Assembly: GCA_021773975.1 (NCBI GenBank)
Contig: JAJFJN010000012.1
Coordinates: forward strand, 299-64,298
DNA length: 64,000 bases
Direction: 5' to 3'
DNA from: Gammaproteobacteria bacterium
Lineage (GTDB): Bacteria > Pseudomonadota > Gammaproteobacteria > Chromatiales > Chromatiaceae
In this document: positions 6,848 to 41,604 of the stretch, piece by piece
How positions within the stretch are numbered: position 1 is the first letter of the stretch
Layout: the number at the start of each line of letters is the position of its first letter
Program-made: the position numbers and the translations under genes
The notes under the pieces: generated by a model
Database searches by the model: none
The model's input: only the letters and a program-made list of their open reading frames with translations
Told to the model about the DNA's origin: nothing

Positions 6848-6848
6848 T

Positions 6849-25973: not shown

Positions 25974-26042
25974 AGACCTTTATGCTGAATTATGCACTTC
26001 AGCAGGGTTAACTTATTTTTTTAGGTTGTACTAATACGGTCA

Positions 26043-26116
26043 TTGATTATGCGACACATAGAGGTTAAAAACACGGATATTCACTGCTGAAATAGAATGC
26101 AATGTCGCATAATCAA
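26043..26116. repeat. 14-bp perfect inverted repeat (TTGATTATGCGACA ... TGTCGCATAATCAA) with a 46-bp spacer
   Basis: Read directly: 26043-26056 is the reverse complement of 26103-26116. The right arm supplies the apparent ATG of the truncated sigma54-activator ORF. Confidence 0.7.
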
Positions 26117-26677
26117 CGTACTTATAGTAGCTTATTAATGGAGGGTCTACTCAGTCGACTTCAACTGGTGGCTAATAGTGATGTTAGTGTCTTTATTAGT
26201 GGTGAAAGTAGGACAGGAAAAGAGCTGCTGGCTCACGCTGTTCACCTGGCTAATCCAAGAGTCAACAACCCATTCCTAGCGGTTAACTGTGGTGCTATGC
26301 CGGAACAGTTATTGGAATCTGAGATATTTGGCCATAGTAAAGGGGCATTTACGGGCACCACATCAAATCACCAAGGGCTGTTTGAGGCGACTCATGGAGG
26401 GACTCTGTTTCTGGATGAAATTGGTGATATGTCTTTTAGTTTGCAAGTCAAGCTATTGAGAGTGTTATAGGAACATGAAGTGCGTCCTGTTGGTTCTACC
26501 AAAAGCATCTCTGTGGATATTAGGGTTGTCTCTGCCACTCACCGTAACCTGGAACGGGCAATGGCTGCGCGGGATTTTCGTGAGAATCTGTACTATCGAT
26601 TAAATGTGCTTGCTCTGGAGATACCCTCGTTGAAACATTTACTAGACTGTTCAATGCATTGTTTATTCATTCATTAG
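26102..26677 (+). pseudogene. Sigma54-dependent transcriptional activator remnant (AAA+ core only)
   Basis: The fragment reads VFISGESRTGKELLAHAVH...GAFTG...LFLDEIGDM...LLRVL*EHEVRPVGS...IRVVSATHRNL. There is an in-frame TAG at 26468-26470. The receiver/sensor and DNA-binding domains are missing. The Walker A motif reads GESRTGKE instead of GESGTGKE. Confidence 0.75.
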
Positions 26678-27493: not shown

Positions 27494-28153
27494 CTACTTC
27501 TTATTATTAGCCACCCAAACCGCTGCTTCTAATCTAGATCGTAAATTCAGCTTTTTTAGCAGGTGTTTTACGTGCACTTTCACTGTTCCTTCTGTTATAT
27601 CCAGCTTACGCGCAATAAGTTTATTACTATAGCCATTAGCAATGAGTTTTAATATCTGCTCTTCTCTTTGCGTAAGCCCGGCTTTTGATGGGGTTTTTGG
27701 TGCAGCATCCTCACGTAAGGCATGCGCCATTAACTCAGTTAGCTTATCGCAAATCACAAACTGACCATTTGCTGCAGTTTGCAGTCGTTCCAAAATATCC
27801 TCCGGCTCCATATCTTTAAGAAGATAACCATCTGCGCCCGCGCGCAATGCTGCAACTACATTTTCTTCATTATCCGATACCGTTAACATAATGACACGTG
27901 AATCGACGTCTGTAGCTTTAATTGCTTCAAGCGTCTCAATGCCACCCATGCCTTTCATGTTCATATCAAGCAAAATCAAATCTGGATTAAGCTTTACCGC
28001 TAATTCTAATCCTTCTTGACCCGACGCAGCCTCCCCCACTAGCGTCAATGAATCTACCAATGAAATAAGGTCAGCAACTCCTTTTCTGAACAAAGGGTGG
28101 TCATCAATTGCTATAATAGTATTTGTTTTTTTATCATTCATCATTAGACTCAT
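27494..28153 (-). CDS. narL: NarL/FixJ-family response regulator (REC plus LuxR-type HTH)
   Basis: 219 aa. The receiver carries DLILLDMNMKGMGG. The C-terminus carries LTQREEQILKLIANGYSNKLIARKLDITEGTVKVHVKHLLKKL. It overlaps the kinase gene by 4 nt. Confidence 0.85.
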   Translation of the reverse strand: MSLMMNDKKTNTIIAIDDHPLFRKGVADLISLVDSLTLVGEAASGQEGLELAVKLNPDLILLDMNMKGMGGIETLEAIKATDVDSRVIMLTVSDNEENVVAALRAGADGYLLKDMEPEDILERLQTAANGQFVICDKLTELMAHALREDAAPKTPSKAGLTQREEQILKLIANGYSNKLIARKLDITEGTVKVHVKHLLKKLNLRSRLEAAVWVANNKK

Positions 28154-30147
28154 TTATTTTGTGCATCTTTTACAACTGCGGTATCTACGATAACGTCTTG
28201 TGAGATCACCTGCTTAAAATCTACGATATTCTTAGCATCTGTTGAAAATTCCAACTTTACTCGTGTTCCACCCTTTTCACGTCGTGATAGCTCAATTTCC
28301 CCCCCGAGCCTACCTGCTCGCTCATTTATTATTGCTAAGCCATAATGATTACGGCGCTGTGCTAACTCTGATATTCCAATACCATCATCCTCAATACTAA
28401 TTGTGACTCGGCAACTATTACTATCAAAAAGCAACTTAACTTGAACGTTTTCTGCTTTCGAATGATTAACTGCATTAGACAATACTTCTCTCACCACCTG
28501 CAGGACATGAATCTCTTGATGTGCATTTAACTGACATTCATCTAATTCATTTTCTAAAGTAATATTTATTTCACTTCGTTTTCGCCAATCTTCAACTGTA
28601 TTCTCTACAGATTGAATCAAACCACTGCCTTCCATTTTAATACGAAAGGTTGTTAACAACTCCCGCAGCTGACGGTACGCTGAGCTAATACCTTCTCGCA
28701 TTTCACCTATAATGATTTGAACTTCCTGCTCTGTATCGGGCTTAGCTATAGTCATATCCAGACGTGTTGCTTGAATTTTCAGATATGACAACGACTGTGC
28801 TAACGAATCATGCAATTCACGTGCAATCACACTGCGCTCCTCCAACAATGCTAAGCGCCTGGATTCTGTAACACGTTGGGTCAGATTCAGTGCCATACCG
28901 ACATGACGGGCAACTGTTTCTAACATTTGTGTTTGTCGCTCTTCTACTCCACCACCAGGCAACACCTCCATAAATAACACACCAACCTGTGCATCTTTAT
29001 CTTTAATAGGAGTCGAGACAAGCTCTACCTCATGATCACCCGTCGTTGCCTTAAATATGTGGGTAGCACCATCAGCGTAACATTCATTACAATTAAGGTG
29101 AGAGCAGACATCAGGGATATCATCTACAGCATCCCTGGTAGAGGCCAACACAAGCTGGCTGGTAAGCGCATTTTTCCCTAAACAAATTGCACCCGGTCCA
29201 AATCCAAGTGGCTTCTCAATATCTTTTAATAGGTTTTCATACGTTGCATCTGACAGTGGAGCCTCACTCAAACGCCTAATCGTGTTATACAATAACTCTA
29301 ACGATTGGTTGCTACGCTCTAAATCAATTGTTTTATCTTTTACCCTTGCTTCTAAGTTCGCATACATCTTAGATAGATCTTCAGACATCTCATTAAAAGA
29401 AGCGCCTAACTGGCCTAATTCATCGTTAGCAATGTAATGAGTTCTAACAGAAAAATCCCCCATCCTTGCACTATTAGCACAAACCAATAACCTATCTAAC
29501 GGTGCCAGCACCTTTCGTGCAAGCAAGATAACGCTAAACAGCGCAGCACACAGCGTTAAAGCAAGAGAGACAATCATAGCCAGCTTCAAACTTTGAATCT
29601 TTGCCTCAGAGGTCTCTTCCAGTAGAGTTACAAAATTATCTATATCAAAAACAAAATCATTTATCACTGAGAGATATTCTTGCCTGACATTACTACGCAG
29701 ACCAGGGGAACTATCACCATATAGATTCCTAAGATCTTCCTTATATTTACGAGATTCAGCATAAGCCAAAAATGTGGGTTTAATCTCGCTGTTCCATCTT
29801 TGACTTAAGCGCCAATATGCATCTTGTAACTTATCCTTAGGGTTAACCGGAAGTGCCTCAACCAGCGCAGGATGAGTAAGACGATAATCAAATTCTAACA
29901 GCTCTGCCTCAATAGCCCGTGCAATCGAAGCGTTCTTACTCCTGATATCCTGATCTAGATCAATAACAGAGAGAATACGAAAGGATTGCATGCGTAAAGT
30001 ACCAGCCTGATTAATAGCACCTGCATCTCCACGAATAATCTCAGTTGTAAATACAGAACTCAACATGCCTACAAATGCCAAGGTTGTGATGGCCGCCATA
30101 GCCATACCAAGCCGCCGTAAGGTGGGCTTTTTATACAACCCAATCAT
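28150..30147 (-). CDS. narX: NarX/NarQ-type sensor histidine kinase
   Basis: 665 aa. The periplasmic domain carries a NarX P-box-like AINQAGTLRMQSFRI between two TM helices. It is followed by HAMP, a central Cys-containing GAF-like module (CSHLNCNEC), HisKA_3 (RELHDSLAQSLS) and HATPase domains. Confidence 0.8.
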   Translation of the reverse strand: MIGLYKKPTLRRLGMAMAAITTLAFVGMLSSVFTTEIIRGDAGAINQAGTLRMQSFRILSVIDLDQDIRSKNASIARAIEAELLEFDYRLTHPALVEALPVNPKDKLQDAYWRLSQRWNSEIKPTFLAYAESRKYKEDLRNLYGDSSPGLRSNVRQEYLSVINDFVFDIDNFVTLLEETSEAKIQSLKLAMIVSLALTLCAALFSVILLARKVLAPLDRLLVCANSARMGDFSVRTHYIANDELGQLGASFNEMSEDLSKMYANLEARVKDKTIDLERSNQSLELLYNTIRRLSEAPLSDATYENLLKDIEKPLGFGPGAICLGKNALTSQLVLASTRDAVDDIPDVCSHLNCNECYADGATHIFKATTGDHEVELVSTPIKDKDAQVGVLFMEVLPGGGVEERQTQMLETVARHVGMALNLTQRVTESRRLALLEERSVIARELHDSLAQSLSYLKIQATRLDMTIAKPDTEQEVQIIIGEMREGISSAYRQLRELLTTFRIKMEGSGLIQSVENTVEDWRKRSEINITLENELDECQLNAHQEIHVLQVVREVLSNAVNHSKAENVQVKLLFDSNSCRVTISIEDDGIGISELAQRRNHYGLAIINERAGRLGGEIELSRREKGGTRVKLEFSTDAKNIVDFKQVISQDVIVDTAVVKDAQNK

Positions 30148-30599: not shown

Positions 30600-30615
30600 T
30601 ACCCATAAAGAGGTA
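30600..30615. promoter_or_regulatory. Candidate NarL/NarP 7-2-7 binding site (TACCCAT-AA-AGAGGTA)
   Basis: Both heptamers fit the NarL consensus TACYYMT; the second reads TACCTCT on the other strand. They are inverted with a 2-bp spacer, 126 bp upstream of the operon ATG. A third near-consensus heptamer, TACCCAA, lies at 30592-30598. Confidence 0.5.
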
Positions 30616-30740: not shown

Positions 30741-31619
30741 ATGTCATCAGAAAATAAACATGAGAGTTCCACTCACCATCTGCGTGAGTATGGAGTTCAA
30801 ACGCCGGGGACAAAGGGTATTCCTGGCAAAAGACGTTACTCAATGGTCATCGACCTCAGGAAATGCATTGGGTGCATGTCCTGTGTAGTAGCTTGCAAAG
30901 CCGAATATGGCGTTCCTCTAGGAGTCTGGCGAACCTGGGTTATGGTCGCAGATAAGGGGAGGTATCCAGATAGCAGACGCATCTTCATGCCTCGCCTGTG
31001 TAATCACTGCGATTACCCAATCTGCGTACGCAACTGCCCCACACAAGCCACCTTCAAACATGCAGAAGGCTTCGTGCTACAACGGTATAACCGTTGTATC
31101 GGATGTCGGACCTGCGTCATAGCCTGTCCATACAACGCCAGGCATTTCCTTCCAGCAAAACGCACCAACAACAACCTTCCCAAACTGGTTGTCGATAAGT
31201 GCACCTTCTGTATCCATAGGGTTAAGAAGGGATTGGTACCTGCATGCGTACAAGCCTGTGTTGGTGGCGCACGCATCTTTGGTGATGTTAACGATCCCAA
31301 GAGCGAAGTAGCAAAACTTACTGCAAAAGAGAAGGTTACAGTACTAAAACCTGAACTAGGCACAAGTCCATCCGTCTACTACATTGGTGGCGACTGGGAG
31401 ATTATGGATGAAACCCATAACTACAAACATCGCTCAGCTCAGCAGAAGGCAGAGTTCAATACCTTTAAACGCAATCATCACGGAGATGCATTCGCTGATA
31501 TCGTTGAAGGTGAGAACACCATGCACCATGTAGGCAAAAACATGTCTGACTTCCTGGCGTCAATACCACACAAGTTCCATGATGTGGTTGCTGCGCTCAA
31601 GAAGCTGCTGTTTGCATAA
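30741..31619 (+). CDS. Four-cluster [4Fe-4S] ferredoxin subunit of a complex iron-sulfur molybdoenzyme (PsrB/DmsB/TtrB-like)
   Basis: Four Cys groups are present: CIGCMSCVVAC, CNHCDYPICVRNCP, CIGCRTCVIACP and CTFC...ACVQAC. There is no signal peptide. A C-terminal extension of ~80 aa is His-rich. Confidence 0.85.
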   Translation: MSSENKHESSTHHLREYGVQTPGTKGIPGKRRYSMVIDLRKCIGCMSCVVACKAEYGVPLGVWRTWVMVADKGRYPDSRRIFMPRLCNHCDYPICVRNCPTQATFKHAEGFVLQRYNRCIGCRTCVIACPYNARHFLPAKRTNNNLPKLVVDKCTFCIHRVKKGLVPACVQACVGGARIFGDVNDPKSEVAKLTAKEKVTVLKPELGTSPSVYYIGGDWEIMDETHNYKHRSAQQKAEFNTFKRNHHGDAFADIVEGENTMHHVGKNMSDFLASIPHKFHDVVAALKKLLFA

Positions 31620-31631
31620 GGGGGGGCAACA

Positions 31632-32537
31632 ATGGAAACCTTAATTACATATAACGCCGTCCACCACAATCCGTGGGGGACACCCATTACCATTTACTTC
31701 TGGCTGGTTGGCGCCAGTGCCGGTTCATTTGTACTCTCCGCTTTTGGCTGGGTATTCGGCATCAAACGCTACAAACCACTAGCTCTGAGCGCATCAGTAT
31801 TGGCTATTGGCATGCTGATGATCGTTCCAGTGCTGCTGATTTGGGATCTGGGTAAACCATTCAGGTTTATCTACCTCATGCTACCAGGATACTGGCACGG
31901 CACGGCTCCCATGGCCTGGGGTTCTCTGCTGATCTTAAGCTACCCAGTCTCGATGTTTGTCTATACCTACTTTGTCATTAAAAATGACCAAAAATGGGCG
32001 AAAATAATAGGCATCATCGCTATTGTTCTAGCGCTCTCTACACACTGGTATACCGGTGTTGTTATGGAGCTGAACCCTGGCCGCTACATCAACCATACAC
32101 CGCTTGCTCCACTGTTATTTTTAACAGGTGCATTTATATCGGGTATCGGCTTGATGATCCTAGTGCTCTGGATCAAGAACTTCTTTATGAGTGAGGAGAA
32201 GAAGATCAAGTGGGCGCTTATGGAAGAGATGGCTCAATATATGATGTATGGCATCGTATTTGACTGCTTCCTGCTCTTTCTCGACTTCATGCAAACACAG
32301 TACGGAACCGCAAGCGAAAATATAGGGCATCATGAAGTATTGATGAATATTTTCTTCACTCCGTACATAATGCTTGAGACTGTTATCGGCCTGCTTCTTC
32401 CACTAGTTATTCTGTGTTCACCACTCAAACGCACAAGACTTGGCGTATATGGCGCCTCCCTCTTGGTCGCTGGCGGTGTATATGGCATGCGTATCTGGTG
32501 GGTTATGGGCGGCCAATACATGCAGTCCTTCTATTGA
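31632..32537 (+). CDS. NrfD/PsrC-type integral membrane quinone-interacting subunit
   Basis: 301 aa with about 8 TM helices, lying between the FeS and molybdopterin subunit genes. SD GGGGGG is upstream. Confidence 0.85.
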   Translation: METLITYNAVHHNPWGTPITIYFWLVGASAGSFVLSAFGWVFGIKRYKPLALSASVLAIGMLMIVPVLLIWDLGKPFRFIYLMLPGYWHGTAPMAWGSLLILSYPVSMFVYTYFVIKNDQKWAKIIGIIAIVLALSTHWYTGVVMELNPGRYINHTPLAPLLFLTGAFISGIGLMILVLWIKNFFMSEEKKIKWALMEEMAQYMMYGIVFDCFLLFLDFMQTQYGTASENIGHHEVLMNIFFTPYIMLETVIGLLLPLVILCSPLKRTRLGVYGASLLVAGGVYGMRIWWVMGGQYMQSFY

Positions 32538-32553
32538 TTTGGAGAATAGAATA

Positions 32554-34902
32554 ATGTCAAAAATCAACAGACGAGACTTCTTAAAAGCAGGCGCAGTTGC
32601 AACTACCGCAGCAGCAGTTCCCGGTGTGGGATCAGCTATGGAGCTAAAACTCGGTGGCGCCGACTTTCATCAAATCAGGACCTTTCATGAGCGCAAAAAG
32701 ACACCATATCTTTGCACCATGTGTCCCTATTTTGATGGCGGATTCTGCTACGAAGAAGCCGGTGAAATTGTTAAGGTCGAGGGCAACCCTGACCATATCG
32801 CATCCCGCGGTAAATTCTGTACCAAAGGACTAGCATCATTCTTCGGCGCATCTGACCCCGACAGAATCCTCGCTCCTATGAAACGCTCAGGTCCACGTGG
32901 CTCAGGCCAATGGAAAGAGATCAGCTGGGATGAAGCCATCGCTGAGGTTTCTTCAAAGGTACAAGCCGCTGTCGATGCCAATCCAGACAGCGTTGTCCTA
33001 AACGAAGGCGCCTTCAAAGAGGGTGGCACAACCCGTTTTATGGATACACTGGGTTCAAGCTCAGTCATCCGTAGTCGGGTTCCATCCATCAGCAGCGTGG
33101 CTAAACAGGCGGTGCTTAAAAAGACCTTTGGTGTGGACTCCACACTGCCGGACTTTGAAAACACCAAGTATGTCCTAAACTTCGGCGAAAACATTATTGA
33201 GACAGCCCTTCCATTTGCTCAACGTCTCACAGATGGCATCGTCAACAACCGCTTGAAGCTTGTCACCTTTGACGTGCGTATGTCACACACTGCAGGAAGA
33301 AGTAGTGAATGGATACCTGTATTTCCAGGTAGTGACGGTATTATCGCACTGGCTATGGCCAATGTGATCATGGAAAAAAATCTGGCAAATGTTGACTTTA
33401 TAAATAGCTGGACTAATACCACTGCAAGTGAGTTGGCTCAGCAATTGAAAGCCTACACACCAGCCAAGGCTCAAAAGGCGAGTGGTGTCTCAGCAAAGGA
33501 TATCAAACGTCTTGCCATTGAGTTTGCCAAAAGCAAACCAGCAATAGTCGTTAGTCAAAATGGCCTGAGCTTCCATAAAGGTGGTGTAGATGCAGAAGCA
33601 GCAGCTCAGCTTCTGACCATCATAACTGGCAATATTGATATTGAAGGTGGTAACTGTCTGCCACGCCAGTTTGATATCGCTTCAATCCAACCCGCTCCTG
33701 CTGCTTCAGGCAGTGCCTCACGCCAGCTGAACCACACCTTTCCATTTGAGGTAAAAGGCGGCAAACGTAAGGTACAGGTAATGTTCAACCATATGAGCAA
33801 TCCAGCCTACTCATCTCCTGCAGCAAGCGTCTGGCGCGATGTGCTAAAAGAAGAGAGCCTGATTCCATATCTGGTTGATTTCAGCCCCTTCATGAGTGAA
33901 ACATCTGCATTGGCAGATATCATCCTTCCTGATGTGGTTCCAACAGAGCGGCATGATGTTGGCAGCAGTCCAACAGCACTGCACCCATGGCTCACCAAGA
34001 CCATCCCTGGTGTTAAAGCTCGAGGCCAGGCACAGGATGTTCGTGAAACCCTGAAAAAGATTGTCGAAACCATCGATGCAGATGGTAGCCGTGGCATGAA
34101 AGAGTTTTGGTCCTTTAAAAATGCCAAAGACTGGGTCAAACAAGAGGTGGCTGGTATCGGGCTGGATAAAAAAGCTCTCAAAGCACTCGAAAAAGGTGTT
34201 TATCCGGCCTACGGTAAGATTGACCCCAACACGCGAAAGATTGTCAAAAAAGGCGAGCCTATCCCTGCTGATTACAAAACCTACGAATCAGCTGGATTTG
34301 CAACACCCTCTGGCAAGGTTGAGGTCTCTACACCAACATGGACAGAAAACTCACGACTCTCTAACATTAAGTCAAATGAGTTTGTTTTAACCACCTTCAA
34401 GGTGAGCTATCAAAGCCTCTCTCGCACATCCAATCTGAAATTATTGTCAGAGTTATGGCATGCCAATCCACTATGGATCAATAAAGAAATTGCTCTAAAA
34501 CTGGGAATCGGCGATGGCGAACTGGTTAGAGTTAAGAGCGAGGTGGGTTACCTGGTAACTAAAGCCTGGCTGACTCAGGGCATTCATCCTCAGGTCATCG
34601 GGTTCTCTACCTCTGTAGGGCGCTCTGCCTATGGTCGTGTTGCTCAAGCTGATCCTACTGCAAAAACACCACTTGCAGATGACTCACAGGCAGATGAGGA
34701 TATTCTTGCCAACCTCTGGTGGAGAGATGGTGGTATCAACCCCAACGACATCATCCCACTAGCCATTGATCCAGCATCTGGAGCACAGGCCTGGAATGAT
34801 ACGGTGGTAACGATCTCACCTTCAGAATCAGGCGACAAATATGGTGACATCAAAGTCGATAACGCCAAACATGAAGCCATATATAAGAGACAAATGGGTT
34901 AA
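32554..34902 (+). CDS. Tat-exported molybdopterin (bis-MGD) oxidoreductase-type catalytic subunit, substrate unknown
   Basis: The start is set at the ATG at 32554 (SD GGAGA 9 nt upstream), giving the twin-arginine signal MSKINRRDFLKAGAVATTAAAVPG. An N-terminal FeS motif CTMCPYFDGGFC-x23-C is present. Typical CISM segments occur (GNPDHIASRGKFCTKG, KEISWDEA). 782 aa. Confidence 0.85.
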   Translation: MSKINRRDFLKAGAVATTAAAVPGVGSAMELKLGGADFHQIRTFHERKKTPYLCTMCPYFDGGFCYEEAGEIVKVEGNPDHIASRGKFCTKGLASFFGASDPDRILAPMKRSGPRGSGQWKEISWDEAIAEVSSKVQAAVDANPDSVVLNEGAFKEGGTTRFMDTLGSSSVIRSRVPSISSVAKQAVLKKTFGVDSTLPDFENTKYVLNFGENIIETALPFAQRLTDGIVNNRLKLVTFDVRMSHTAGRSSEWIPVFPGSDGIIALAMANVIMEKNLANVDFINSWTNTTASELAQQLKAYTPAKAQKASGVSAKDIKRLAIEFAKSKPAIVVSQNGLSFHKGGVDAEAAAQLLTIITGNIDIEGGNCLPRQFDIASIQPAPAASGSASRQLNHTFPFEVKGGKRKVQVMFNHMSNPAYSSPAASVWRDVLKEESLIPYLVDFSPFMSETSALADIILPDVVPTERHDVGSSPTALHPWLTKTIPGVKARGQAQDVRETLKKIVETIDADGSRGMKEFWSFKNAKDWVKQEVAGIGLDKKALKALEKGVYPAYGKIDPNTRKIVKKGEPIPADYKTYESAGFATPSGKVEVSTPTWTENSRLSNIKSNEFVLTTFKVSYQSLSRTSNLKLLSELWHANPLWINKEIALKLGIGDGELVRVKSEVGYLVTKAWLTQGIHPQVIGFSTSVGRSAYGRVAQADPTAKTPLADDSQADEDILANLWWRDGGINPNDIIPLAIDPASGAQAWNDTVVTISPSESGDKYGDIKVDNAKHEAIYKRQMG

Positions 34903-34943: not shown

Positions 34944-35609
34944 TTGAAGACAACAACTAAAGCCATGCTTTTGATCATTGGTGCAATCGTCCTGGTTCTG
35001 CTCTTTTCTGCTCTGAGCTGTACCAGTGATCGATTCCAACGAATCAGCGCATGCACCGTATGCCATGAAATATTTGTTGATTATGACGAATACAAACCCA
35101 TCGGCATCGCAAGTGAAGAGATTGAAGACTACAAACCAAGAGAAGTCTTTGAGCCCGGTGCATTCGACGTAACAGTTGGCTGCGCAGAGTGTCATGCCTA
35201 CCCTTACGAGGAGTACCGTGAATCACCTCACTATGACAATGAGCTTGAGGTACGTCCTGGCTGCGTTGGCTGCCACGAACCACACAGCGTACGTGAGATC
35301 CTGCACTGGAAGTTTATTTACCTGAACCAAGGTGTTGTAGGAGAAAGCCCATTCCATGCTGTCTCTAACAGCTTGCGCGATATCGAGATGTGGGAAGAGG
35401 AGCTTCGACCTAAAATGGCTGCAAAAGTACGTCAGCAAATGGTTGAAGAGAAAAGTGAAAAGTGCCAGGTCTGCCATAAGACTGAAAGTGAGTGGTGGCA
35501 GGATATAGGCCAGCACAAAACCATGAAGGAAAAAGGCGTCTCCTGCATCAACTGCCACTACAACCTTGTTCACGCAGAGGTTCCATGGCCAGAGATGGAA
35601 GAGGAGTAA
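34944..35609 (+). CDS. Membrane-anchored NapC/NirT-family cytochrome c with five haem motifs
   Basis: TTG start 7 nt after SD GGAGGA, and an N-terminal TM helix. Five CXXCH motifs: CTVCH, CAECH, CVGCH, CQVCH and CINCH. The last four align with the NapC pattern (C..CH..YxEY...HY, C..CH.PH, C..CH, CI.CH....H). Confidence 0.8.
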   Translation: MKTTTKAMLLIIGAIVLVLLFSALSCTSDRFQRISACTVCHEIFVDYDEYKPIGIASEEIEDYKPREVFEPGAFDVTVGCAECHAYPYEEYRESPHYDNELEVRPGCVGCHEPHSVREILHWKFIYLNQGVVGESPFHAVSNSLRDIEMWEEELRPKMAAKVRQQMVEEKSEKCQVCHKTESEWWQDIGQHKTMKEKGVSCINCHYNLVHAEVPWPEMEEE

Positions 35610-35775: not shown

Positions 35776-36168
35776 ATGAAGCGATTGAAAAAGAGTATCA
35801 ACATAGCAGCAGCAATTGCAGTAGCTTTAACTATGGGCTTAACTACCGGCCTTGCTGTCGCAGCTGACTGCGATGATGAAGATGCCGTCAAAACTGTACA
35901 GAAAAAGGTCTACAAAAAGAGTTGTAAAAAATGCCATGGTTCCAAAGGCAACGGCAAAGGTCCAGGTGCTAAAGGCATGGATCCTGCGCCACCTGATTGG
36001 ACTGCTGGCACAGAAAAATCCGATGATGATCTTTACCAGATCATTATGGAAGGCAGCAAAGACACCGAAATGAAGGGTTGGAAAGCTGGTGTCGCTAAAG
36101 CAGGTAAAGAGGTCTCTGAAGATGAAGCGCATACTCTGGTATGCATCGTCCATGGCTTCAAAAAATAA
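35776..36168 (+). CDS. Periplasmic monohaem class I c-type cytochrome
   Basis: Start set at the ATG at 35776 (SD GGAGG 5 nt upstream). The signal peptide reads ...GLAVAA. A single CKKCH is present, with a Met-containing segment downstream (IIMEGSKDTEMKGW). Confidence 0.75.
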   Translation: MKRLKKSINIAAAIAVALTMGLTTGLAVAADCDDEDAVKTVQKKVYKKSCKKCHGSKGNGKGPGAKGMDPAPPDWTAGTEKSDDDLYQIIMEGSKDTEMKGWKAGVAKAGKEVSEDEAHTLVCIVHGFKK

Positions 36169-36250: not shown

Positions 36251-37264
36251 ATGCTGAATAAGCGTAGCACATGGCTGCTGTCGGTAATGCTGACTGCAAG
36301 CCTATTCTTGTTTACAGGTGCAGTACATTCTGCAGCAAAAGCAGCGCCGGCACCGGCCCCTAAAGCAGCGGCACCCGCTGCTCCCGCAGTAGATGACGAC
36401 ACCGTAAATCTCGTATATGGCGATATCGTCATGACCAGAACCAGAGAAGGTATGGAAGAGGGCGAAGTAGAAGCTGTCGTGTTTCCACACTGGTTCCACC
36501 GAATTCGTTTCCGCTGCAAGGTCTGCCATGAAGATACCTTTGTAACCAACAAAGGCGAAAATATTGTCGACATGGATCAGATCAGTGCTGGCGAGAAATG
36601 TGGCATGTGCCATGATGGCTCCGTTGCATGGGACCCACTTGAGTGCGAAAACTGCCACTACTATCCAATGGAACAGCTAGATGCTGAAGCAGCGCCACCA
36701 CCTGAAGAGACCAACCCTGCCAACCTGCTATTCGCTGGTCGTGGCGGAAAGATAGCTGGCAAAGGCGATCGTCGTAAACCATCAGGTTCTGCCTTCAAAT
36801 GGGGCGGCGGCTGGCAACCACGTGCTTTCTCCATGGCGGGTCTTCCAAAAGATAAATATGGTCTCGTAGATTGGATCAAGATCACCAAAAACGGCATGCT
36901 TCTACCAAAGGGTTCAATCGATCCAGAAGCCCCACTGTATGAATCTCCTGTTCACTATGAATTTGATGCGGACGGTGAAGAGGACATCGAAGACATGGTG
37001 ATCAAAGTAAAGAGCAAGAGCATTGCTGAAGTGCTCTTTCCTCACACCTTGCACACTTGGTGGCTAAACTGTAAAAGCTGTCATCCACACCGTTTTGTCC
37101 GTACCGCGGGTGATACCCCAATGACCATGAGAGAGATGGCCAAAGGCAAGTACTGCGGCGAGTGTCACGGTAAAGTCGCATTCCCGCTTGAGGATTGCGG
37201 TAAATGCCACAACAGAGAGAAAGTTGCCGCATGCAAAGCAAGCGATAACTGCACATTTGACTAA
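36251..37264 (+). CDS. Periplasmic hexahaem cytochrome built from two c7-type trihaem domains
   Basis: Start at the ATG at 36251 (SD GGGAGGG). Signal peptide, then an Ala/Pro-rich linker (AAKAAPAPAPKAAAPAAPA). Two units of the pattern FPHxxH..C..CH...M....G..CG.CH.G..A....C..CH are present, giving CKVCH, CGMCH, CENCH, CKSCH, CGECH and CGKCH. Confidence 0.8.
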   Translation: MLNKRSTWLLSVMLTASLFLFTGAVHSAAKAAPAPAPKAAAPAAPAVDDDTVNLVYGDIVMTRTREGMEEGEVEAVVFPHWFHRIRFRCKVCHEDTFVTNKGENIVDMDQISAGEKCGMCHDGSVAWDPLECENCHYYPMEQLDAEAAPPPEETNPANLLFAGRGGKIAGKGDRRKPSGSAFKWGGGWQPRAFSMAGLPKDKYGLVDWIKITKNGMLLPKGSIDPEAPLYESPVHYEFDADGEEDIEDMVIKVKSKSIAEVLFPHTLHTWWLNCKSCHPHRFVRTAGDTPMTMREMAKGKYCGECHGKVAFPLEDCGKCHNREKVAACKASDNCTFD

Positions 37265-37294
37265 ATTGGCATAGTAAACGTAGTGGGAGTGGTC

Positions 37295-38491
37295 ATGATG
37301 AATAAAATATTGAGATGTATAACCATCGCCTTGTTCTTATTCTCATGTACCACTCCTTTTGCTTTTGCCGAGGAGAGAGTTCTTCCCAAAAAGATGACAC
37401 CTGCCAAGTTGGAAAAGTCAGTCCATCGCCAGCTTAAATATATTGATAAACGCCTTCTTGCAGGTAAAAGTGCCGATCAAATCCTAAATAGTGGAAACGA
37501 TAAAGCCATATTCATCCTGAATGAAAGCAAGAAAAAGCGCGATATTATTGCCAAACAGATCGAAGAAGGAGAGATGGAACCAGCCTATTGGGCATTAAAA
37601 GATCTTGGCAATGAACTTCGTGCTGCCTCAAAACTTGTACGCGCAAAAAACGTATCCGCAAAAAAGATAAAGGATGACCTAGACCTAGCAAAAATTAAAA
37701 GTGATGCATACGAAGAACGCGCCAAGCAACGCGGCATTCATGATGGTAGCGGTGGCAAAGAGGCGCACGACCTATTTGAACAAGCTGAAGAAAAGCGCAA
37801 AGAAGCCCGCCAACTTGAAAAAAACAAGAAGTATAAAGAATCCACCAGCGCCTATCTCAGCTCAACTGAATTTATAAAAAAAGCCATTGCCACATCAAAA
37901 CGGCAAGGATATAGCAGCAGCAAAATCAATAAAGAAGAAAAAAGAGTACTGCCTAAAGGGATGACGCCAGAAAAATTGAAAAAATCCGTAATCAGGCAAT
38001 TCAAATATATAGACACCCGCCAGCTTTCAGATAAAAGTCACCAAAAAATAAAAGATAGCCAGAATAGTGAAGCTATAACCATTTTTAACCGGGGACGTAA
38101 ACGCATTAACACTATTGCAAGCAAGATTGATGAAGAGCAGTATGAAGAGGCTTATTGGGCGCTACAAAAACTTGCCAGCTCCTTAAAAGACGCCATGAAA
38201 CTAGCTCTAGCTAAAAAAACTGAAGCTAAAAACGACAAGAACGAAATGGATAGTGCTCGCATCACAAGTGATGCCTACCTCGAACGTGCAAGACAGAGAG
38301 GCATTCATGAAGGCAAAGGTGGTGCCGAAGCCCTGGAGCTTTTTAAACGCGCAGAAGCTGAGCGCACTGATGCCATCAACGCACAATCAAAAGAACAATA
38401 TAAATGGGCATCAAAAGGCTACCAGCTTTCAACTGAATTCCTAAAGAAATCCATTACATCAGCAAAAGAGTGGCAGAAATCCAACGAATAA
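37295..38491 (+). CDS. Secreted helical protein made of two tandem ~185-aa repeats, unknown function
   Basis: The signal peptide MMNKILRCITIALFLFSCTTPFAFA has a possible AFA/E cleavage site or LFSC lipobox. The halves starting at nt 37370 and 37934 align end to end (RVLPKKMTPAKLEKSV../RVLPKGMTPEKLKKSV.., AYWALKDL/AYWALQKL, SDAYEERAKQRGIHDG/SDAYLERARQRGIHEG, LSSTEFIKKAI/LSTEFLKKSI). Confidence 0.7.
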   Translation: MMNKILRCITIALFLFSCTTPFAFAEERVLPKKMTPAKLEKSVHRQLKYIDKRLLAGKSADQILNSGNDKAIFILNESKKKRDIIAKQIEEGEMEPAYWALKDLGNELRAASKLVRAKNVSAKKIKDDLDLAKIKSDAYEERAKQRGIHDGSGGKEAHDLFEQAEEKRKEARQLEKNKKYKESTSAYLSSTEFIKKAIATSKRQGYSSSKINKEEKRVLPKGMTPEKLKKSVIRQFKYIDTRQLSDKSHQKIKDSQNSEAITIFNRGRKRINTIASKIDEEQYEEAYWALQKLASSLKDAMKLALAKKTEAKNDKNEMDSARITSDAYLERARQRGIHEGKGGAEALELFKRAEAERTDAINAQSKEQYKWASKGYQLSTEFLKKSITSAKEWQKSNE

Positions 38492-38563
38492 ATCACATCG
38501 AAGAGGCATTAAAAAACATACATTGACCATGGCAAATCCTGATTCACTGCGCGAGTCCACTGC

Positions 38564-39748
38564 ATGAAGCAACTCAAGTTACTTCATGCATTACTGTGGC
38601 TTTTTACTGCCCTGCCCTTCACCCTATTTCTTTCAACAGCAAGCTATGCTGAAGACACACCTTTCCGCATTAATTTCGTTACGAACTATAAGTCATTTCA
38701 ATTCAAAGCACAGGAAGAACTCATAAAAAGTAGCAAGGCAATCATGCCTGGTGAAATAGAAGCGCTTATTAACGATGCAATGTCGGCAGAAATCAGCCTA
38801 GGGCAAAAAATGTTTATGCTGGATGCTGCCAATGCTATGGCCAGCGGTTACAACCACTATCATGGTGGGGGGAAAAAATTACTTCGCAAAATCAACAAAC
38901 TCATAAAAGAAGAGCTAGAAAAAGAGAAAGCAAAAAATGCAGAATTAATGAAGTGGAATGATGAAGAGCGTTTTCTTGGTAACTTTGTCATGAAAACCCG
39001 TGAAAAAGAGATGGCCGAAAAAGGACTCGCTCCTGTCATCTACCCTCATTGGGTGCATCGTATCTGGTTTGAATGCAAAGTCTGTCACCAAGACATCTTT
39101 ATTATGAAGCGGTGGCGTAATGACATCACCCAAGCAAAAATTGAAGCCGGACAGCAATGCGGAAAATGCCACAATGGTGAACTTGCCTTTGGCGTTAAAG
39201 ATAACTGTGACCGCTGTCACCTCGCAGGAAAGCCAGAAGCTGACAAACTACATAATGCAAAGCGTGTTGACCATAAGGCTATAAAAGAAGTTGCTAAAAA
39301 AGTAGGTGCCGAATGGAATTTTGACAAACTTCCCAACGGCCAGCTTCCTGTCGATCGCTTTGGATTTATCGATTGGTTAAATATGAAAAAAGTGGGGGTA
39401 TTCAAACCAATACACTCGCTAAATGAAAATTATAAACCTGAAACCAGGGACAATATAATTCTCTTTGAATCTAAAAGTAAGGCGAAAAATGTTCTTTTTA
39501 GCCACGACGTACATTCAAGCTGGATCAAATGCTCATCCTGCCATCCTGAAGTTTTTACTAAAACATTAACCAACAATGTAAAAATGGTCAGGATGTCAAA
39601 GGGACAGTACTGCGGCCACTGCCACGGCAAGGTCTCTTTTACATTTGCAGACTGCACACGCTGTCATATGCAGGAAAAAGGAGTCATGGTTGACGGCGCC
39701 CTACTTCATAAAGGAAAACCTAAAAAGAAGAAAAAGAAGAAACCCTAA
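38564..39748 (+). CDS. Periplasmic hexahaem cytochrome: N-terminal helical domain plus two c7-type trihaem domains and a poly-Lys tail
   Basis: Signal peptide ending SYA/E. Six motifs: CKVCH, CGKCH, CDRCH, CSSCH, CGHCH and CTRCH. The C-terminus reads KGKPKKKKKKKP. Confidence 0.8.
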   Translation: MKQLKLLHALLWLFTALPFTLFLSTASYAEDTPFRINFVTNYKSFQFKAQEELIKSSKAIMPGEIEALINDAMSAEISLGQKMFMLDAANAMASGYNHYHGGGKKLLRKINKLIKEELEKEKAKNAELMKWNDEERFLGNFVMKTREKEMAEKGLAPVIYPHWVHRIWFECKVCHQDIFIMKRWRNDITQAKIEAGQQCGKCHNGELAFGVKDNCDRCHLAGKPEADKLHNAKRVDHKAIKEVAKKVGAEWNFDKLPNGQLPVDRFGFIDWLNMKKVGVFKPIHSLNENYKPETRDNIILFESKSKAKNVLFSHDVHSSWIKCSSCHPEVFTKTLTNNVKMVRMSKGQYCGHCHGKVSFTFADCTRCHMQEKGVMVDGALLHKGKPKKKKKKKP

Positions 39749-39772
39749 ATTTCACACAACGAGGTCATTATT

Positions 39773-40195
39773 ATGAGCGACACAATCAACCATCCAGAAG
39801 ACATCCGCTTCTACAAAAAACTTATACGACTAACTGACCAACAACTTGCATCGATCCATAAGAATCTTGCAAGAGATGCTAGTTTCTTCCATAAACATCT
39901 ATTTCTATTTCGAAATGTTCTTTTCAAAAAAACCATTCTTAAACTGCTAACTCAGAAAGAAGCTCGGGTCGATGAAAAAGAAGCACTTAATGAAATGATG
40001 GCCGAACTAAAGTTTATAGAAGCAGATAATAATGAATGGAAAACGCATGGCAAAGATGAGATTGATTACATTCGGATAATGGTTCATGGTTTGCGTGATA
40101 TCTCAGGTGAAGAAGTTAAAGAAGAAACCGAAACAAAAGGAGAGAAAAAAGCAAGCAAGCTCACATACCGGCTCAAGATCAACGAATGTAGTTAA
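39773..40195 (+). CDS. Hypothetical protein without a signal peptide inside the cytochrome operon
   Basis: 140 aa, SD GAGGT upstream, no Cys-rich or haem motif, acidic/basic helical C-terminus. No family recognised. Confidence 0.5.
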   Translation: MSDTINHPEDIRFYKKLIRLTDQQLASIHKNLARDASFFHKHLFLFRNVLFKKTILKLLTQKEARVDEKEALNEMMAELKFIEADNNEWKTHGKDEIDYIRIMVHGLRDISGEEVKEETETKGEKKASKLTYRLKINECS

Positions 40196-40227
40196 GTAAC
40201 GCTAACAAACAAATATTCAAGCATTTT

Positions 40228-41181
40228 ATGCTACATGCCACAAAATTCCTGTTTAGTTGCCTAATCCTATTATCAGCTAATGCCTACGCTGAATATGGCG
40301 ACATCATCTTAAACAGAACAGCTGATGCCATGCGTGAGGCAGAGGTTGATGATGTAGTCTTTCCCCATTGGTTCCATCGTATACGTTTTCGTTGCAGTGT
40401 ATGCCATGAAAATATATTTAAAATAAAAGCTGGCTCGAATGAAATTTCAATGTCTACCATCACAGAAGACAAACAAGCTTGCGGCGTATGCCATGATGGA
40501 CTGGTTGCTTGGGAACCACTTGAATGTGAGCGCTGCCACGCACTAGAAGAGGGCTGGAGTTCTGGTGCTATTCAGCATTCCATCCGAGAAGATGAAAAAA
40601 AGAACATTTTACTTGGAATTGTTGGAACAGTTGCCAAGCCCTACTCAAAATTCATGGAAATTGGCACGGGCTGGCATCCTTTGGCTCTAGCTAAAAGTGG
40701 GTTACCACTCGACAAATATGGCCTTGTAAACTGGGCCGATGCCGTACGCAAAAAAATAGTTAACCCACTATGGAGCCTCAACCCAGAAGATGATATTTCA
40801 GAGCACGAGCTAAGAGATACAAATATTCTATTTACAGCTAAAGGAGATAGCATGCCTGATGTTATCTTCCCGCATGACATCCATAGCTATTGGCTAGAAT
40901 GTAAAATTTGTCACGGCACACAAGATGGCCCTATGTTTATTAAAGAATTAGGAGCCAATAATGTAACCATGATGGAAATTGGCCAGGGAAAATGGTGTGC
41001 CAGATGTCATGACAAAATTGCATTCCCCATAAGCGATTGCAATCGCTGCCATAACCACCCAAAGGGCAAACCAATTTCCAATAGCGTATTAATACGCCCT
41101 CTTAAGGTAGCTCCACCCCCTACTCTTCCCCCCATTGATGAACCTGCACAGCAAAATTCTGTTGATAGCGATTTTTTCTAG
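40228..41181 (+). CDS. Periplasmic hexahaem cytochrome (two c7-type domains), paralogue of 36251-37264
   Basis: Signal peptide ending AYA/E. Six motifs: CSVCH, CGVCH, CERCH, CKICH, CARCH and CNRCH. It shares VVFPHWFHRIRFRC.VCHE with the first paralogue. The C-terminus is Pro-rich (KVAPPPTLPPIDEPAQ). Confidence 0.8.
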   Translation: MLHATKFLFSCLILLSANAYAEYGDIILNRTADAMREAEVDDVVFPHWFHRIRFRCSVCHENIFKIKAGSNEISMSTITEDKQACGVCHDGLVAWEPLECERCHALEEGWSSGAIQHSIREDEKKNILLGIVGTVAKPYSKFMEIGTGWHPLALAKSGLPLDKYGLVNWADAVRKKIVNPLWSLNPEDDISEHELRDTNILFTAKGDSMPDVIFPHDIHSYWLECKICHGTQDGPMFIKELGANNVTMMEIGQGKWCARCHDKIAFPISDCNRCHNHPKGKPISNSVLIRPLKVAPPPTLPPIDEPAQQNSVDSDFF

Positions 41182-41259
41182 ATCAAAAAGTACAAAAGCC
41201 ATACAATGTCCCGCTTATAATCATCCAACAGCCATCTTTAGTTACGAGAAATACACATA

Positions 41260-41604
41260 ATGACCAGAGTATTACAGTCCATAGCGCTTTTCGTAGCTTT
41301 AACTACCCAAGCATTAGCAATTGATACAATTAACATTATCTTTGACTCAAAGGTAAGTAGTATGAAAGAAGCGGGCTTAGGAGCTGTCACATATCCGCAT
41401 AAGTTACACGAAGAACTCTATCAGTGTGATGATTGCCACCCAAGAATATTCATCGAAAAAAAGGGCGGGAATGACGTCAATATGCAAAAAAACATGACTG
41501 AACAATATTGTGGTTTTTCAGGGTGTCACAATAGCGCATACGCTTTTCCATTATATCTTTGTGACTACTGCCATGAGGTTTTACCAACTGCAGGTAAGAA
41601 ATAG
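41260..41604 (+). CDS. Periplasmic single-domain c7-type trihaem cytochrome
   Basis: 114 aa with a signal peptide ending ALA/I. The pattern is VTYPHKLHEELYQCDDCH ... YCGFSGCH ... CDYCH. The middle site is CX4CH rather than CXXCH. Confidence 0.75.
   Translation: MTRVLQSIALFVALTTQALAIDTINIIFDSKVSSMKEAGLGAVTYPHKLHEELYQCDDCHPRIFIEKKGGNDVNMQKNMTEQYCGFSGCHNSAYAFPLYLCDYCHEVLPTAGKK

Follow-up and report, generated by a model that had tools for sequence, protein, structure and literature searches.

The window analysed here, 64,000 nt of gammaproteobacterial DNA, contains four related plus-strand reading frames for c7-type cytochromes, three with two c7 domains (hex1, hex2 and hex3) and one with a single domain (tri). 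An earlier note made from the sequence alone had claimed as much, and matches to PF14522, TIGR04257 and the GSU1996 structure bear this out. The four genes lie in the distal half of a run of 11 same-strand genes with gaps of 12–166 bp and no plus-strand terminator predicted between them, and the 11 are predicted to be co-transcribed (Table 1). This operon context, absent from the earlier note, holds most of the functional information. Two non-haem genes interleaved among the cytochrome genes, helrep and sm140, had also been missed.

Table 1. Features of the locus, in window coordinates
Feature	Position	Strand	Description
narL	27494-28153	-	321.9 bits (cut-off 250)
narX	28150-30147	-	narX/narQ-like sensor kinase, divergent from operon
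NarL-type box	30600-30615	+	7-2-7 box TACCCATAAAGAGGTA, exact; 126 bp upstream of FeS_B start codon
FeS_B	30741-31619	+	First operon gene; four-cluster ferredoxin subunit, TtrB/DsrO/ArrB-like
NrfD_C	31632-32537	+	NrfD/PsrC-family membrane subunit, eight hydrophobic segments
Mo_A	32554-34902	+	TAT-exported molybdopterin-oxidoreductase-family subunit, Psr/Phs/Arr-like
NNT	34944-35609	+	NapC/NirT family (PF03264, 89.5 bits), one N-terminal membrane helix, five CxxCH
cytc1	35776-36168	+	Monohaem class-I cytochrome c, signal peptide
hex1	36251-37264	+	Hexahaem c7-type cytochrome, 337 aa; PF14522, TIGR04257
hex1 head motif	36842-36874	+	LPKDKYGLVDW
helrep	37283-38491	+	Helical protein, 402 aa, signal peptide, no haem site
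hex2	38564-39748	+	Hexahaem c7-type cytochrome, 394 aa; PF14522, TIGR04257
hex2 head motif	39344-39376	+	LPVDRFGFIDW
sm140	39773-40195	+	140 aa, no signal peptide, no haem site
hex3	40228-41181	+	Hexahaem c7-type cytochrome, 317 aa; PF14522, TIGR04257
hex3 head motif	40702-40734	+	LPLDKYGLVNW
tri	41260-41604	+	Single-domain trihaem c7-type cytochrome, 114 aa; PF14522, TIGR04257

Domain identity and haem sites

The HMM searches that the earlier note had proposed place all four proteins above the 40-bit cut-off of TIGR04257, the 'c(7)-type cytochrome triheme domain' (hex1 128, hex2 132, hex3 107 and tri 56 bits, with two stretches per hexahaem protein). PF14522 is also matched above its cut-off by each (E = 6.8e-22, 6.7e-26, 2.8e-21 and 4.5e-10, respectively), and by these scores the c7 domain matches are far beyond chance. 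The best PDB match is to the domains of GSU1996 (3OV0, E = 9e-33, four stretches). A fold search gives the c7-type assignment weak backing, and the AlphaFold model is mediocre (mean pLDDT 67, without haems). All four cytochromes fall in the c7 'haem-wire' domain family known from Geobacter, in which they are uncharacterised; close homologues are already annotated at NCBI as 'c(7)-type cytochrome triheme domain-containing protein'. The earlier note had allowed that they might belong to a well-described family of known function and partners; the domain family is well described, but the literature searched assigns no function or partner to any member of the hexahaem family or of the operon.

The FPHxxH-x5-CxxCH pattern described in the earlier note is found in 7/7 domains. 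Each domain also has the claimed three haem sites, six per hexahaem protein and three in tri (21 haems in all), although not all are CxxCH: tri has CGFSGCH, a CX4CH motif, at its second position, as do 6/6 tri orthologues. Every domain would carry one His/Met haem and two bis-His haems, the latter with distal ligands probably supplied by the (F/Y)(P/S)HxxH box. In alignment, hex3 M75 and M248 correspond to the axial Met209 and Met287 of GSU1996 (PMC10138318) and are nearly invariant or invariant among 44 aligned sequences; the axial Met is kept in 6/7 domains. In the hex2 N-domain, Q, H, S or K takes its place (9/9 hex2-type sequences), and a conserved Met (FIMKRW) lies nine residues upstream. 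Hydrophobic N-termini with AxA-type cleavage sites constitute Sec signal peptides, pointing to a periplasmic location for all four proteins.

Architecture and age of the paralogues

As the earlier note described, hex1, hex2 and hex3 each carry two units separated by a ~100-aa linker with a common motif. First comes an N-type c7 domain (YGD...FPHWFHRIRFRC), then the linker, containing LPxD(K/R)(Y/F)GxxDW, and last a C-type domain (FPHxxHxxWLxC). The motif belongs to a 'head' element (LPxDxxGxxDW...P with a beta segment), in which L159, P160, D162, G165, W169 and P180 are invariant among the 44 aligned sequences. It is carried by 54/54 close homologues found, but treating it as a mark of these paralogues overstated its specificity: it forms the head of a C-type c7 module that is widespread (393 clusters at E ≤ 1e-30) and occurs, across several phyla, in proteins with 3, 6, 9 or 27 haems. 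In other phyla the head-plus-c7 module adjoins a membrane cytochrome b (L009-L011) or lies inside a PPIase/NHL/multihaem cluster (L012), settings that are periplasmic carrier contexts.

The terminal decorations differ among paralogues, as had been claimed. Hex1 has an Ala/Pro-rich spacer after its signal peptide and a conserved C-terminal CKASDNCT(F/Y); hex2 carries a helical domain of ~110 aa (HYHGGGKK) at its N-terminus and a polybasic tail; hex3 has a Pro-rich tail ending in DSDFF. Because these decorations are conserved inside each orthologous group, distinct partners or locations for the paralogues are plausible.

The earlier note's proposal of an old duplication under purifying selection is upheld. 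The hexahaem proteins are 30–43% identical to one another, and each has its own syntenic orthologue, at 55–92% identity, in Sedimenticola, Polarisedimenticolaceae and unclassified gammaproteobacterial MAG loci; every relative comes from a MAG or a metagenome. Positions 36479-36514 and 40357-40392 both encode VFPHWFHRIRFR, yet 8/12 codons differ, all at third positions. For the c7 genes dN/dS is 0.04–0.07, equal to that of the Mo, FeS and NrfD genes. In a tree of trihaem domains, an analysis also suggested earlier, all N-domains form one clade and all C-domains another, with tri as sister to the N-type domains. As both clades include hexahaem proteins of other phyla, the two-domain fusion is older than the paralogue split, and on this sequence evidence the three proteins are paralogues of ancient origin that share a two-module design found widely.

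Eight MAG loci are syntenic. The full gene order is kept in L001-L006, where most proteins are 51–93% identical to those of the window (sm140, helrep and cytc1 of L001, 37–42%); the Thiohalophilus locus, L007, has hex3 and tri only. At least eight further contigs, matched up by identical length, appear to have a hex3 homologue together with a Mo_A homologue. The non-haem genes are also kept in synteny: in helrep a ~190-aa unit is duplicated internally (50% identity, E = 3e-56), with a single unit in L001, and sm140 shows 37–80% identity. Neither matches a Pfam or NCBIfam family.

The membrane core and its possible regulation

The sequence relatives of the proximal genes lie among the Psr, Phs and Ttr enzymes, with PsrA (2VPW, E = 3e-33) and PhsA (254 bits) closest to Mo_A and TtrB (215 bits) closest to FeS_B. 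An 8-helix membrane subunit is common to these systems, and the ttrBCA gene order matches the B-C-A order of the core. All scores nevertheless fall under curated cut-offs, PsrA C173 (the Cys Mo ligand) and R332 are not conserved in Mo_A, and the core always includes a NapC/NirT-type pentahaem, which PsrABC, PhsABC and TtrBCA lack. At the Mo-ligand position Mo_A has neither Cys nor any conserved residue. Because it keeps the TAT signal, an FS0-type motif (CX2CX3D...C) and 31% of positions at ≥95% conservation, it may have retained the cofactor. If Mo_A is catalytic, the cytochromes could instead serve its substrate chemistry.

QrcABCD, the menaquinone reductase of Desulfovibrio, and alternative complex III (ACIII, ActABCDEF) unite a Mo-bisPGD-like protein, a four-cluster FeS protein, an NrfD-family subunit and a penta- or hexahaem; ACIII adds a monohaem c, and both complexes exchange electrons with periplasmic cytochromes (PMC6303296). 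The core has the same subunit combination, including a Mo_A family without a conserved Mo-ligand residue, but its NrfD subunit has eight hydrophobic helices rather than ten. The QrcA, QrcB and QrcC models score far under their cut-offs, and the PDB sequence matches at E ≤ 1e-10 include no ACIII chain.

In six loci the FeS-NrfD-Mo-NNT core adjoins nirS (PF02239) and a ~145-aa monohaem c, 3' of nirS, that is homologous to cytc1: Thiohalophilus L007, Magnetaquicoccaceae L014, L013 (a 4.68-Mb genome), L016, L017 and a Halieaceae contig. Haem-d1 biosynthesis genes come next in the nirS clusters of L014, L016 and L017, and in L007 hex3 and tri lie on the opposite flank of the core from nirS. NNT shares its membrane-anchored family with NirT of Pseudomonas stutzeri (nirSTBM), but has five haem sites rather than four and invariably accompanies FeS-NrfD-Mo genes; in the window it is followed by c7 cytochromes, with no nirS or other terminal reductase in the 64,000 nt. 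Beggiatoaceae, Magnetococcales and other taxa have the core without any c7 gene, so the c7 proteins are dispensable for its basic function.

The NarL-type box upstream of FeS_B is a candidate site for NarL control of the operon. The box is partly conserved in relatives (at least two mismatches), and its count over the whole window at ≤1 mismatch is not significant. In L001, a gene with a PilJ/NarX-type sensor domain adjoins the operon.

Possible roles of the c7 cytochromes

The four haem proteins probably carry electrons to or from the membrane complex. We lean towards a model in which they form the periplasmic relay and distribution chain of a core hub in anaerobic, nitrate/nitrite-regulated respiration. 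FeS_B, the 8-helix NrfD protein, the TAT-exported Mo-family protein, the NapC/NirT-family pentahaem and the monohaem c would constitute this inner-membrane, periplasm-facing hub, through which the c7 proteins could pass electrons between the quinone pool and periplasmic redox partners; the direction of flow and the partners are read from sequence only. PpcA-E of Geobacter and Desulfuromonas, which share the fold class and the FPHxxH-x5-CxxCH signature, shuttle electrons through the periplasm between quinol oxidoreductases of the inner membrane and acceptors further downstream. Every haem of PpcA has bis-His ligation (PMC10138318). Orthology to PpcA was rejected (equivalog NF043011, 31–34 bits against a cut-off of 120).

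Closer likeness is found in the GSU1996, GSU0592 and GSU2210 proteins of Geobacter sulfurreducens (TIGR04257; 3OV0, 3OUE, 1RWJ), which have the same trihaem domain, with three haem sites, an FxHxxH distal-His box and an aligned axial Met, and are likewise periplasmic with several domains per chain. The Geobacter polymers, however, repeat near-identical domains with short linkers and carry 12 or 27 haems, whereas the six-haem proteins here combine N and C subtypes across ~100 aa with the head motif, in a gammaproteobacterial host and co-operonic with a Psr-like complex. That GSU1996, the closest solved relative, is read as an electron-storage device (PMC10138318) suggests that the c7 proteins might be a periplasmic capacitor that buffers electrons as acceptors fluctuate, a role put forward for periplasmic 'nanowires' of the GSU1996 type. 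Haem capacity is raised by the three conserved paralogues and, in L003 and L004, by an additional hex2-like copy, and MAG names point to redox-fluctuating sediment and vent hosts. We consider this unlikely: it leaves unexplained both the paralogue-specific conserved decorations and the strict operon linkage to one membrane complex, and storage is in any case compatible with a relay. A little less likely still is the periplasmic leg of an extracellular conduit, connecting the hub to an outer-membrane porin-cytochrome and minerals or electrodes, for uptake or delivery. UetD/E/G of 'Ca. Tenderia electrophaga' are c7 trihaems with a proposed conduit role in Tenderiales (10.1101/2022.05.06.490989) and, compared by description, also place several periplasmic c7 paralogues in one gammaproteobacterial electron-transfer cluster. 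The L012 relatives lie in a Uet-module-like cluster of PPIase, multihaem, NHL-repeat and 670-aa (no Pfam match) proteins, and 21 haems in series-capable proteins exceed the needs of a simple shuttle. Yet the Uet cluster, which lacks a Psr-like complex, includes genes for a porin, an undecahaem, NHL and PPIase proteins, whereas genes for a beta-barrel, an outer-membrane cytochrome, an NHL protein or a PPIase are absent from the operon and from all eight syntenic loci; the sole invariant partner is the inner-membrane core, tied elsewhere to soluble periplasmic NirS.

The c7 proteins might alternatively be fixed subunits, equivalent to QrcA/ActA, rather than diffusible carriers, in a single large supercomplex of several cytochromes for which the two helical proteins serve as scaffold. 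Qrc and ACIII do join their Mo-like, FeS and NrfD subunits to a membrane-anchored penta- or hexahaem (PMC6303296), helical non-haem genes are interleaved here, and the flexible spacer after the hydrophobic N-terminus of hex1 and the polybasic tail of hex2 could hold both at the membrane. We regard this arrangement as improbable, since the QrcA/ActA place is already taken by NNT, the only cytochrome always accompanying the core; cleavage sites in the signal peptides look plausible, and the weak match of the hex3 C-domain to the QrcA model (27.7 bits) is far under the cut-off of 180. Highly improbable is that one of the cytochromes acts as an enzyme, such as a small-molecule reductase with an open-coordination haem. 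The missing axial Met of the hex2 N-domain would fit such a role, and a Beggiatoaceae Psr-like ABC set adjoins an octahaem Otr-like enzyme (PMC6449678), but the FIMKRW Met could replace the ligand, no catalytic member of the c7 fold is known and the model gives no substrate-pocket evidence.

Within the favoured relay, the paralogues could be specialised by their decorations: hex1 by a flexible N-terminal tether, hex2 by its helical domain and polybasic tail, and hex3 by its Pro-rich, acidic-ended tail. The host is an uncultured marine bacterium of the sulfur-oxidiser type.

Seven c7-type domains and their haem sites

The plus strand between 36251 and 41604 comprises six ORFs: four c-type cytochromes, namely three hexahaem proteins (hex1, hex2 and hex3) and one single-domain trihaem protein (tri), and two non-haem genes, helrep and sm140, interleaved with them (table). 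By profile score, the cytochrome domains belong squarely to the c7-type family. TIGR04257, the NCBIfam ‘c(7)-type cytochrome triheme domain’ (cut-off 40 bits), scores 128.1, 132.2, 107.2 and 56.4 bits for hex1, hex2, hex3 and tri, each hexahaem matching the profile at two places, and PF14522 (cut-off 24.8) scores 77.5, 90.3, 75.5 and 39.6 bits in the same order. All seven domains hold three haem motifs in ~75 aa and place a His box (FxHxxH, in the form (F/Y)(P/S)HxxH) before the first haem site. The earlier note had read a c7-type pattern, three linker motifs and distinct terminal decorations from the DNA; each is borne out in the ORF translations or matches its description, and we regard its observation as real and its interpretation as correct overall. 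Close homologues already carry a c7-type label in databases.

Features of the operon, its surroundings and the rest of the window (window coordinates)
Feature	Position	Strand	Description
Antiporter cluster	1465-8802		Mrp/Mbh-type multisubunit cation/proton antiporter (MnhE, MbhD/E, NuoK-like, three Proton_antipo_M subunits)
Sensor-like fusion	12603-13586	-	protoglobin domain + PsiE-family membrane domain (PF11563 + PF06146)
Gene fragments	25458-26470		DDE-transposase-like fragment + truncated sigma-54 activator AAA domain, in a lower-GC stretch
NarL box	30600-30615		exact 7-2-7 match
FeS_B	30741-31619	+	four-cluster FeS protein; TtrB 215 bits, DsrO 204 bits
NrfD_C	31632-32537	+	NrfD-family, eight hydrophobic segments
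Mo_A	32554-34902	+	TAT-signal molybdopterin-family subunit
NNT	34944-35609	+	NapC/NirT-family cytochrome; one membrane helix, five CxxCH
cytc1	35776-36168	+	monohaem c
hex1	36251-37264	+	337 aa; 6 haem sites
hex1 C-terminus	37214-37264		Cys pair
helrep	37283-38491	+	402 aa, secreted, helical; two ~190-aa repeats, 50% identical
hex2	38564-39748	+	394 aa; 6 haem sites
hex2 N-domain	39041-39160		variant axial-Met position
sm140	39773-40195	+	140 aa, without signal peptide
hex3	40228-41181	+	317 aa; 6 haem sites
tri	41260-41604	+	114 aa; 3 haem sites
tri middle haem site	41509-41529		residues 84-90, CX4CH

The closest solved structure is the Geobacter dodecahaem cytochrome GSU1996 (3OV0; E 9e-33, over four stretches). 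Unlike PpcA, it has one His/Met haem per domain, with axial Met209 and Met287 (PMC10138318). A phmmer alignment pairs Met209 with hex3 M75, the C-domain counterpart of which is M248; in an alignment of 44 homologues, M248 never varies and M75 hardly does. We infer a ligation scheme in which the (F/Y)(P/S)HxxH box supplies the distal His pair. The axial-Met position aligned with Met209/Met287 is kept in six of the seven domains, the exception being the N-domain of hex2, where Q, H, S or K takes its place in each of the nine hex2-type sequences, which share a Met nine residues upstream (FIMKRW); ligation of this haem may be altered or open. A detail absent from the earlier note is that tri and all its orthologues have CX4CH in place of CxxCH at the middle haem site (CGFSGCH, CGYAGCH, CGSSGCH, CGAAGCH and others).

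These proteins depart from both familiar Geobacter designs. PpcA (NF043011) is a single ~70-aa domain in which all haems are bis-His, whereas the window cytochromes have a predicted axial Met, score 34.0, 31.2 and 32.5 bits against 120, and are matched only weakly by PpcA-type c7 proteins; judged on these comparisons, they are not PpcA orthologues. The GSU1996-type ‘nanowire’ strings tandem, near-identical c7 domains on short linkers into a continuous haem chain, whereas the N and C domains of the hexahaems are 34-41% identical, belong to different subtypes and lie 93-127 aa apart. A fold search with the AlphaFold model of hex3 returned exclusively c7/GSU1996-type matches, none with E <=0.001, and no match to the linker and its head element.

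We take the four cytochromes to be periplasmic because at each N-terminus an AxA-like site follows a hydrophobic segment of the signal type. Their decorations are paralogue-specific: hex1 has a variable, low-complexity tether (AP-rich in the window, K/A/P-rich at the related locus L006 and containing 110 acidic residues at L001), hex2 a helical domain and a polybasic tail, and hex3 a Pro-rich tail with a DSDFF end. The hex1 C-terminus, CK(A/E)S(D/E)(N/D)CT(F/Y), also carries two Cys five residues apart that are kept in all hex1 orthologues, a possible disulfide or metal site. Both non-haem genes are kept in synteny, helrep being reduced to one repeat in L001, and neither has a family in Pfam or NCBIfam, where searches gave sub-threshold noise only (GerD, DUF1805, HEPN). 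A relationship of helrep to sm140 or to the helical N-domain of hex2 was rejected (BLASTP E at least 2; hhalign probability 0.2%, with a repeat profile made of the window's two units and the L001 unit only).

Descent of the hexahaem design

The suggestion that the family arose by an old duplication under purifying selection is supported by several lines of evidence. The paralogues are only 30-43% identical to one another, and each has its own orthologue in relatives (69-92% identity for hex1, 54-86% for hex2, 55-82% for hex3 and 49-79% for tri). The whole gene order recurs in metagenome-assembled genomes (MAGs) named Candidatus Polarisedimenticolaceae, Sedimenticola and Gammaproteobacteria, and part of it in a Thiohalophilus MAG. 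Cytochrome dN/dS is 0.04-0.07 (Nei-Gojobori, against two relatives), a range equalled by the FeS, NrfD and molybdopterin genes, and the codon comparison on which the suggestion had drawn is correct, with 8 of 12 codons differing and every difference in the third position.

When the 43 trihaem domains are treated singly, a neighbour-joining tree, built without bootstrap, separates clean N-type and C-type clades and places tri as sister to the N-type clade. The split also holds for hexahaems elsewhere, including a Thermodesulfobacteriota protein and several metagenome proteins. Because the tree divides N from C across lineages, the N+C fusion is, on this topology, ancient and older than the separation of hex1, hex2 and hex3, which would be later products of whole-gene duplication. 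In two relatives, a further hexahaem gene of the hex2 type, with 68-69% identity to hex2, lies 1-2.5 kb downstream of tri (L003, 13904-15064; L004, 12383-13552). At a further locus (L008, 3746-5710), separate adjacent genes encode an N-type domain of 127 aa and two head-plus-C-type modules of 267 and 225 aa, an arrangement that looks like a split form of the hexahaem architecture.

One reading did not hold: the linker motif is not special to this paralogue family. A profile built from the motif and the C-type domain identifies it as a widespread ‘head’ (LPxDxxGxxDW): this profile matches 780 proteins in a word-indexed search and, when run exhaustively against 1.84 billion cluster representatives, 1546 at E<=1e-3, 875 at 1e-10 and 393 at 1e-30. 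Among the members are trihaem proteins of ~210 aa, made of the head and a single domain, hexahaems of ~250-260 aa and 9-haem proteins with the motif ahead of each domain; in a 27-haem polymer, a segment resembling the head (LPQHPKDGPDW...GVIKP), outside the strict motif, stands at the start only. N-type domains occur standalone too. In the AlphaFold2 model of hex3, which is mediocre as a whole (mean pLDDT 67), head and C-domain are confident (pLDDT 75-87, residues ~160-260), and the head forms short strands and one short helix. Together, head and C-type domain provide a signature for sorting hundreds of unannotated multihaem proteins.

A membrane core related to several known complexes

Five genes precede hex1 on its strand, spaced 12-166 bp apart: the core (FeS_B, NrfD_C, Mo_A and NNT) and the monohaem cytc1. 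Their haem sites and those of the c7 cytochromes come to 27 c-type sites for the operon. NNT belongs to the NapC/NirT family (PF03264, 89.5 bits; cut-off 24.1) and falls below the NapC, NirT and TorC equivalog cut-offs; its hydrophobic helix spans residues 8-26, and its five CxxCH motifs are one above the family norm of four. Divergent from the operon are narL (321.9 bits; cut-off 250) and a narX/narQ-like kinase gene. Between the operon and this narXL pair, 126 bp before the FeS_B start codon, lies an exact NarL 7-2-7 box, TACCCATAAAGAGGTA, the sole match in the 64-kb window. As a regulatory site it is suggestive, because it is conserved only in part among relatives, whose counterparts have at least two mismatches.

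Mo_A is closest to PsrA (2VPW), ArrA and PhsA and reaches no curated family cut-off. Its orthologues (59-95% identity) occur in Sedimenticola, Ca. Halobeggiatoa, Ca. Marithrix, many Magnetococcales, Rhodospirillaceae and Halieaceae. Among them, the residues aligned with Cys173, the Mo ligand of PsrA, vary (SISS, GIGT, SIGT or SLSN), with SIC retained in a 46%-identical outlier (P0455); PsrA Arg332 aligns with Gly in Mo_A, and most family members have Asp as their third FS0 ligand (CX2CX3D). The TAT motif is kept, and 244 of 782 positions (31%) are at least 95% conserved. Two other assignments, a conserved Ser as Mo ligand and an FS0 motif of CX2CX7C, were ruled out by the family alignment. QrcB and ActB are of the cofactor-less scaffold type (PMC6303296), and the Mo_A sequences fit either such a scaffold or an enzyme with an unusual active site.

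Measured against characterized complexes, the operon does not qualify as Qrc, ACIII or Psr/Phs/Ttr, even as its parts list resembles all three. For Qrc, we compared QrcA/B/C equivalog scores, the 10-helix QrcD and the cofactor-less QrcB: scores are 27.7 against 180 for QrcA, 168.8 against 440 for QrcB and 127.9 against 400 for QrcC, and NrfD_C has eight hydrophobic segments rather than ten helices. At the Mo-ligand position, Mo_A has no conserved residue. ACIII combines a fused Mo-like/FeS ActB, 10-helix ActC and ActF, pentahaem ActA and monohaem ActE, whereas the window has separate Mo and FeS genes and one 8-segment NrfD gene, and no ACIII chains are among the PDB matches at E<=1e-10. The pentahaem with a membrane helix and the monohaem c are shared but the gene make-up differs, and the likeness to ACIII is therefore architectural only. 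Psr/Phs/Ttr enzymes have a Cys ligand to Mo and a CX2CX3C...C FS0 site, whereas the Mo_A family is mostly without either, and the scores are 253.8 against 694 for PhsA, 98.1 against 1750 for TtrA and 214.7 against 416 for TtrB. The Uet/hexahaem systems of Tenderiales and the NrfD-FeS-hexahaem complex of Ferrigenium are analogous to the operon, not identical.

At six loci from other lineages (Thiohalophilus L007, Magnetaquicoccaceae FCR-1 L014, a 4.68-Mb genome L013, L016, L017 and a Halieaceae contig), the core lies directly beside nirS, identified by Pfam PF02239 (NCBIfam gave no name), and a ~145-aa monohaem c homologous to cytc1. In L014, L016 and L017, nirE/C/F/D/L/G/H/J-type (haem-d1 biosynthesis) genes come next, and in L007 hex3 and tri occupy the opposite flank of the same core. 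Given these neighbours, the core behaves as a putative membrane hub trading electrons with periplasmic haem proteins, to which the c7 genes are, by their distribution, a lineage-specific addition. In the one Ca. Halobeggiatoa locus examined, the core stands alone, with no adjacent nirS; in a Guaymas Beggiatoaceae genome, a Psr-like ABC set adjoins an octahaem Otr-like gene (PMC6449678). The literature searched, which included few subscription journals, held no description of the hexahaem design, the operon or a Psr-like module in nir clusters. In our view, the core module and its nirS link are a more interesting lead than the cytochromes themselves.

Possible roles and neighbouring loci

We propose that the four cytochromes would form a periplasmic chain that relays and distributes electrons for this hub in nitrate/nitrite-regulated anaerobic respiration, with the paralogue-specific decorations fixing the position or partner of hex1, hex2 and hex3. 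We consider this the most likely role and give it somewhat better than even chances. The same cytochromes could instead constitute an extracellular-electron-transfer leg, but nine loci contain no outer-membrane component. Service as an electron capacitor would be compatible with a relay, yet leaves the decorations unexplained. Ranked likewise below the relay and distribution chain are proposals that the c7 cytochromes are fixed QrcA-like subunits and that a hex2 haem is catalytic.

More broadly, the core could be a third, independently evolved quinol:cytochrome c oxidoreductase of the Qrc/ACIII type, whose Mo subunit has lost or radically changed its active site and which, in many Proteobacteria, serves as electron input for cd1 nitrite reductase; in Sedimenticolaceae-like bacteria it would then have been reconnected to a 21-haem c7 chain of its own, made up of three specialised hexahaems and the trihaem, with two private helical accessory proteins. 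Taken as a whole this combined proposal is speculative, and we think it rather unlikely to hold in every part. If true, anaerobic respiration in sulfur oxidisers would have a periplasmic haem-wire branch that has so far gone unrecognised. A functional link between core and nirS would also identify the route, missing until now, by which electrons reach cd1 nitrite reductase in organisms such as Magnetococcales, Thiohalophilus and possibly Beggiatoaceae, and show how such a route can be extended by a multihaem relay. To our knowledge, c7-type haem wires have been studied almost exclusively in Geobacter; here the building block occurs in uncultured marine gammaproteobacteria, in a conserved two-subtype hexahaem design tied to a widespread, undescribed Psr-like/NirT-like membrane module that elsewhere sits within nirS clusters.

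Plasmids gave no blastn match to the cytochrome region, and neither Rfam nor tRNA scans had any hit in the window. Just beyond narL, a stretch of lower GC (0.39-0.41) holds what is probably decayed or inserted DNA: a fragment resembling a DDE transposase (PF13546, below cut-off) and 122 aa of a truncated AAA domain from a sigma-54 activator (PF00158, E 2e-43). Elsewhere, the window encodes a multisubunit antiporter cluster and, in one protein, an unusual sensor-like fusion of a protoglobin domain with a PsiE-family membrane domain.
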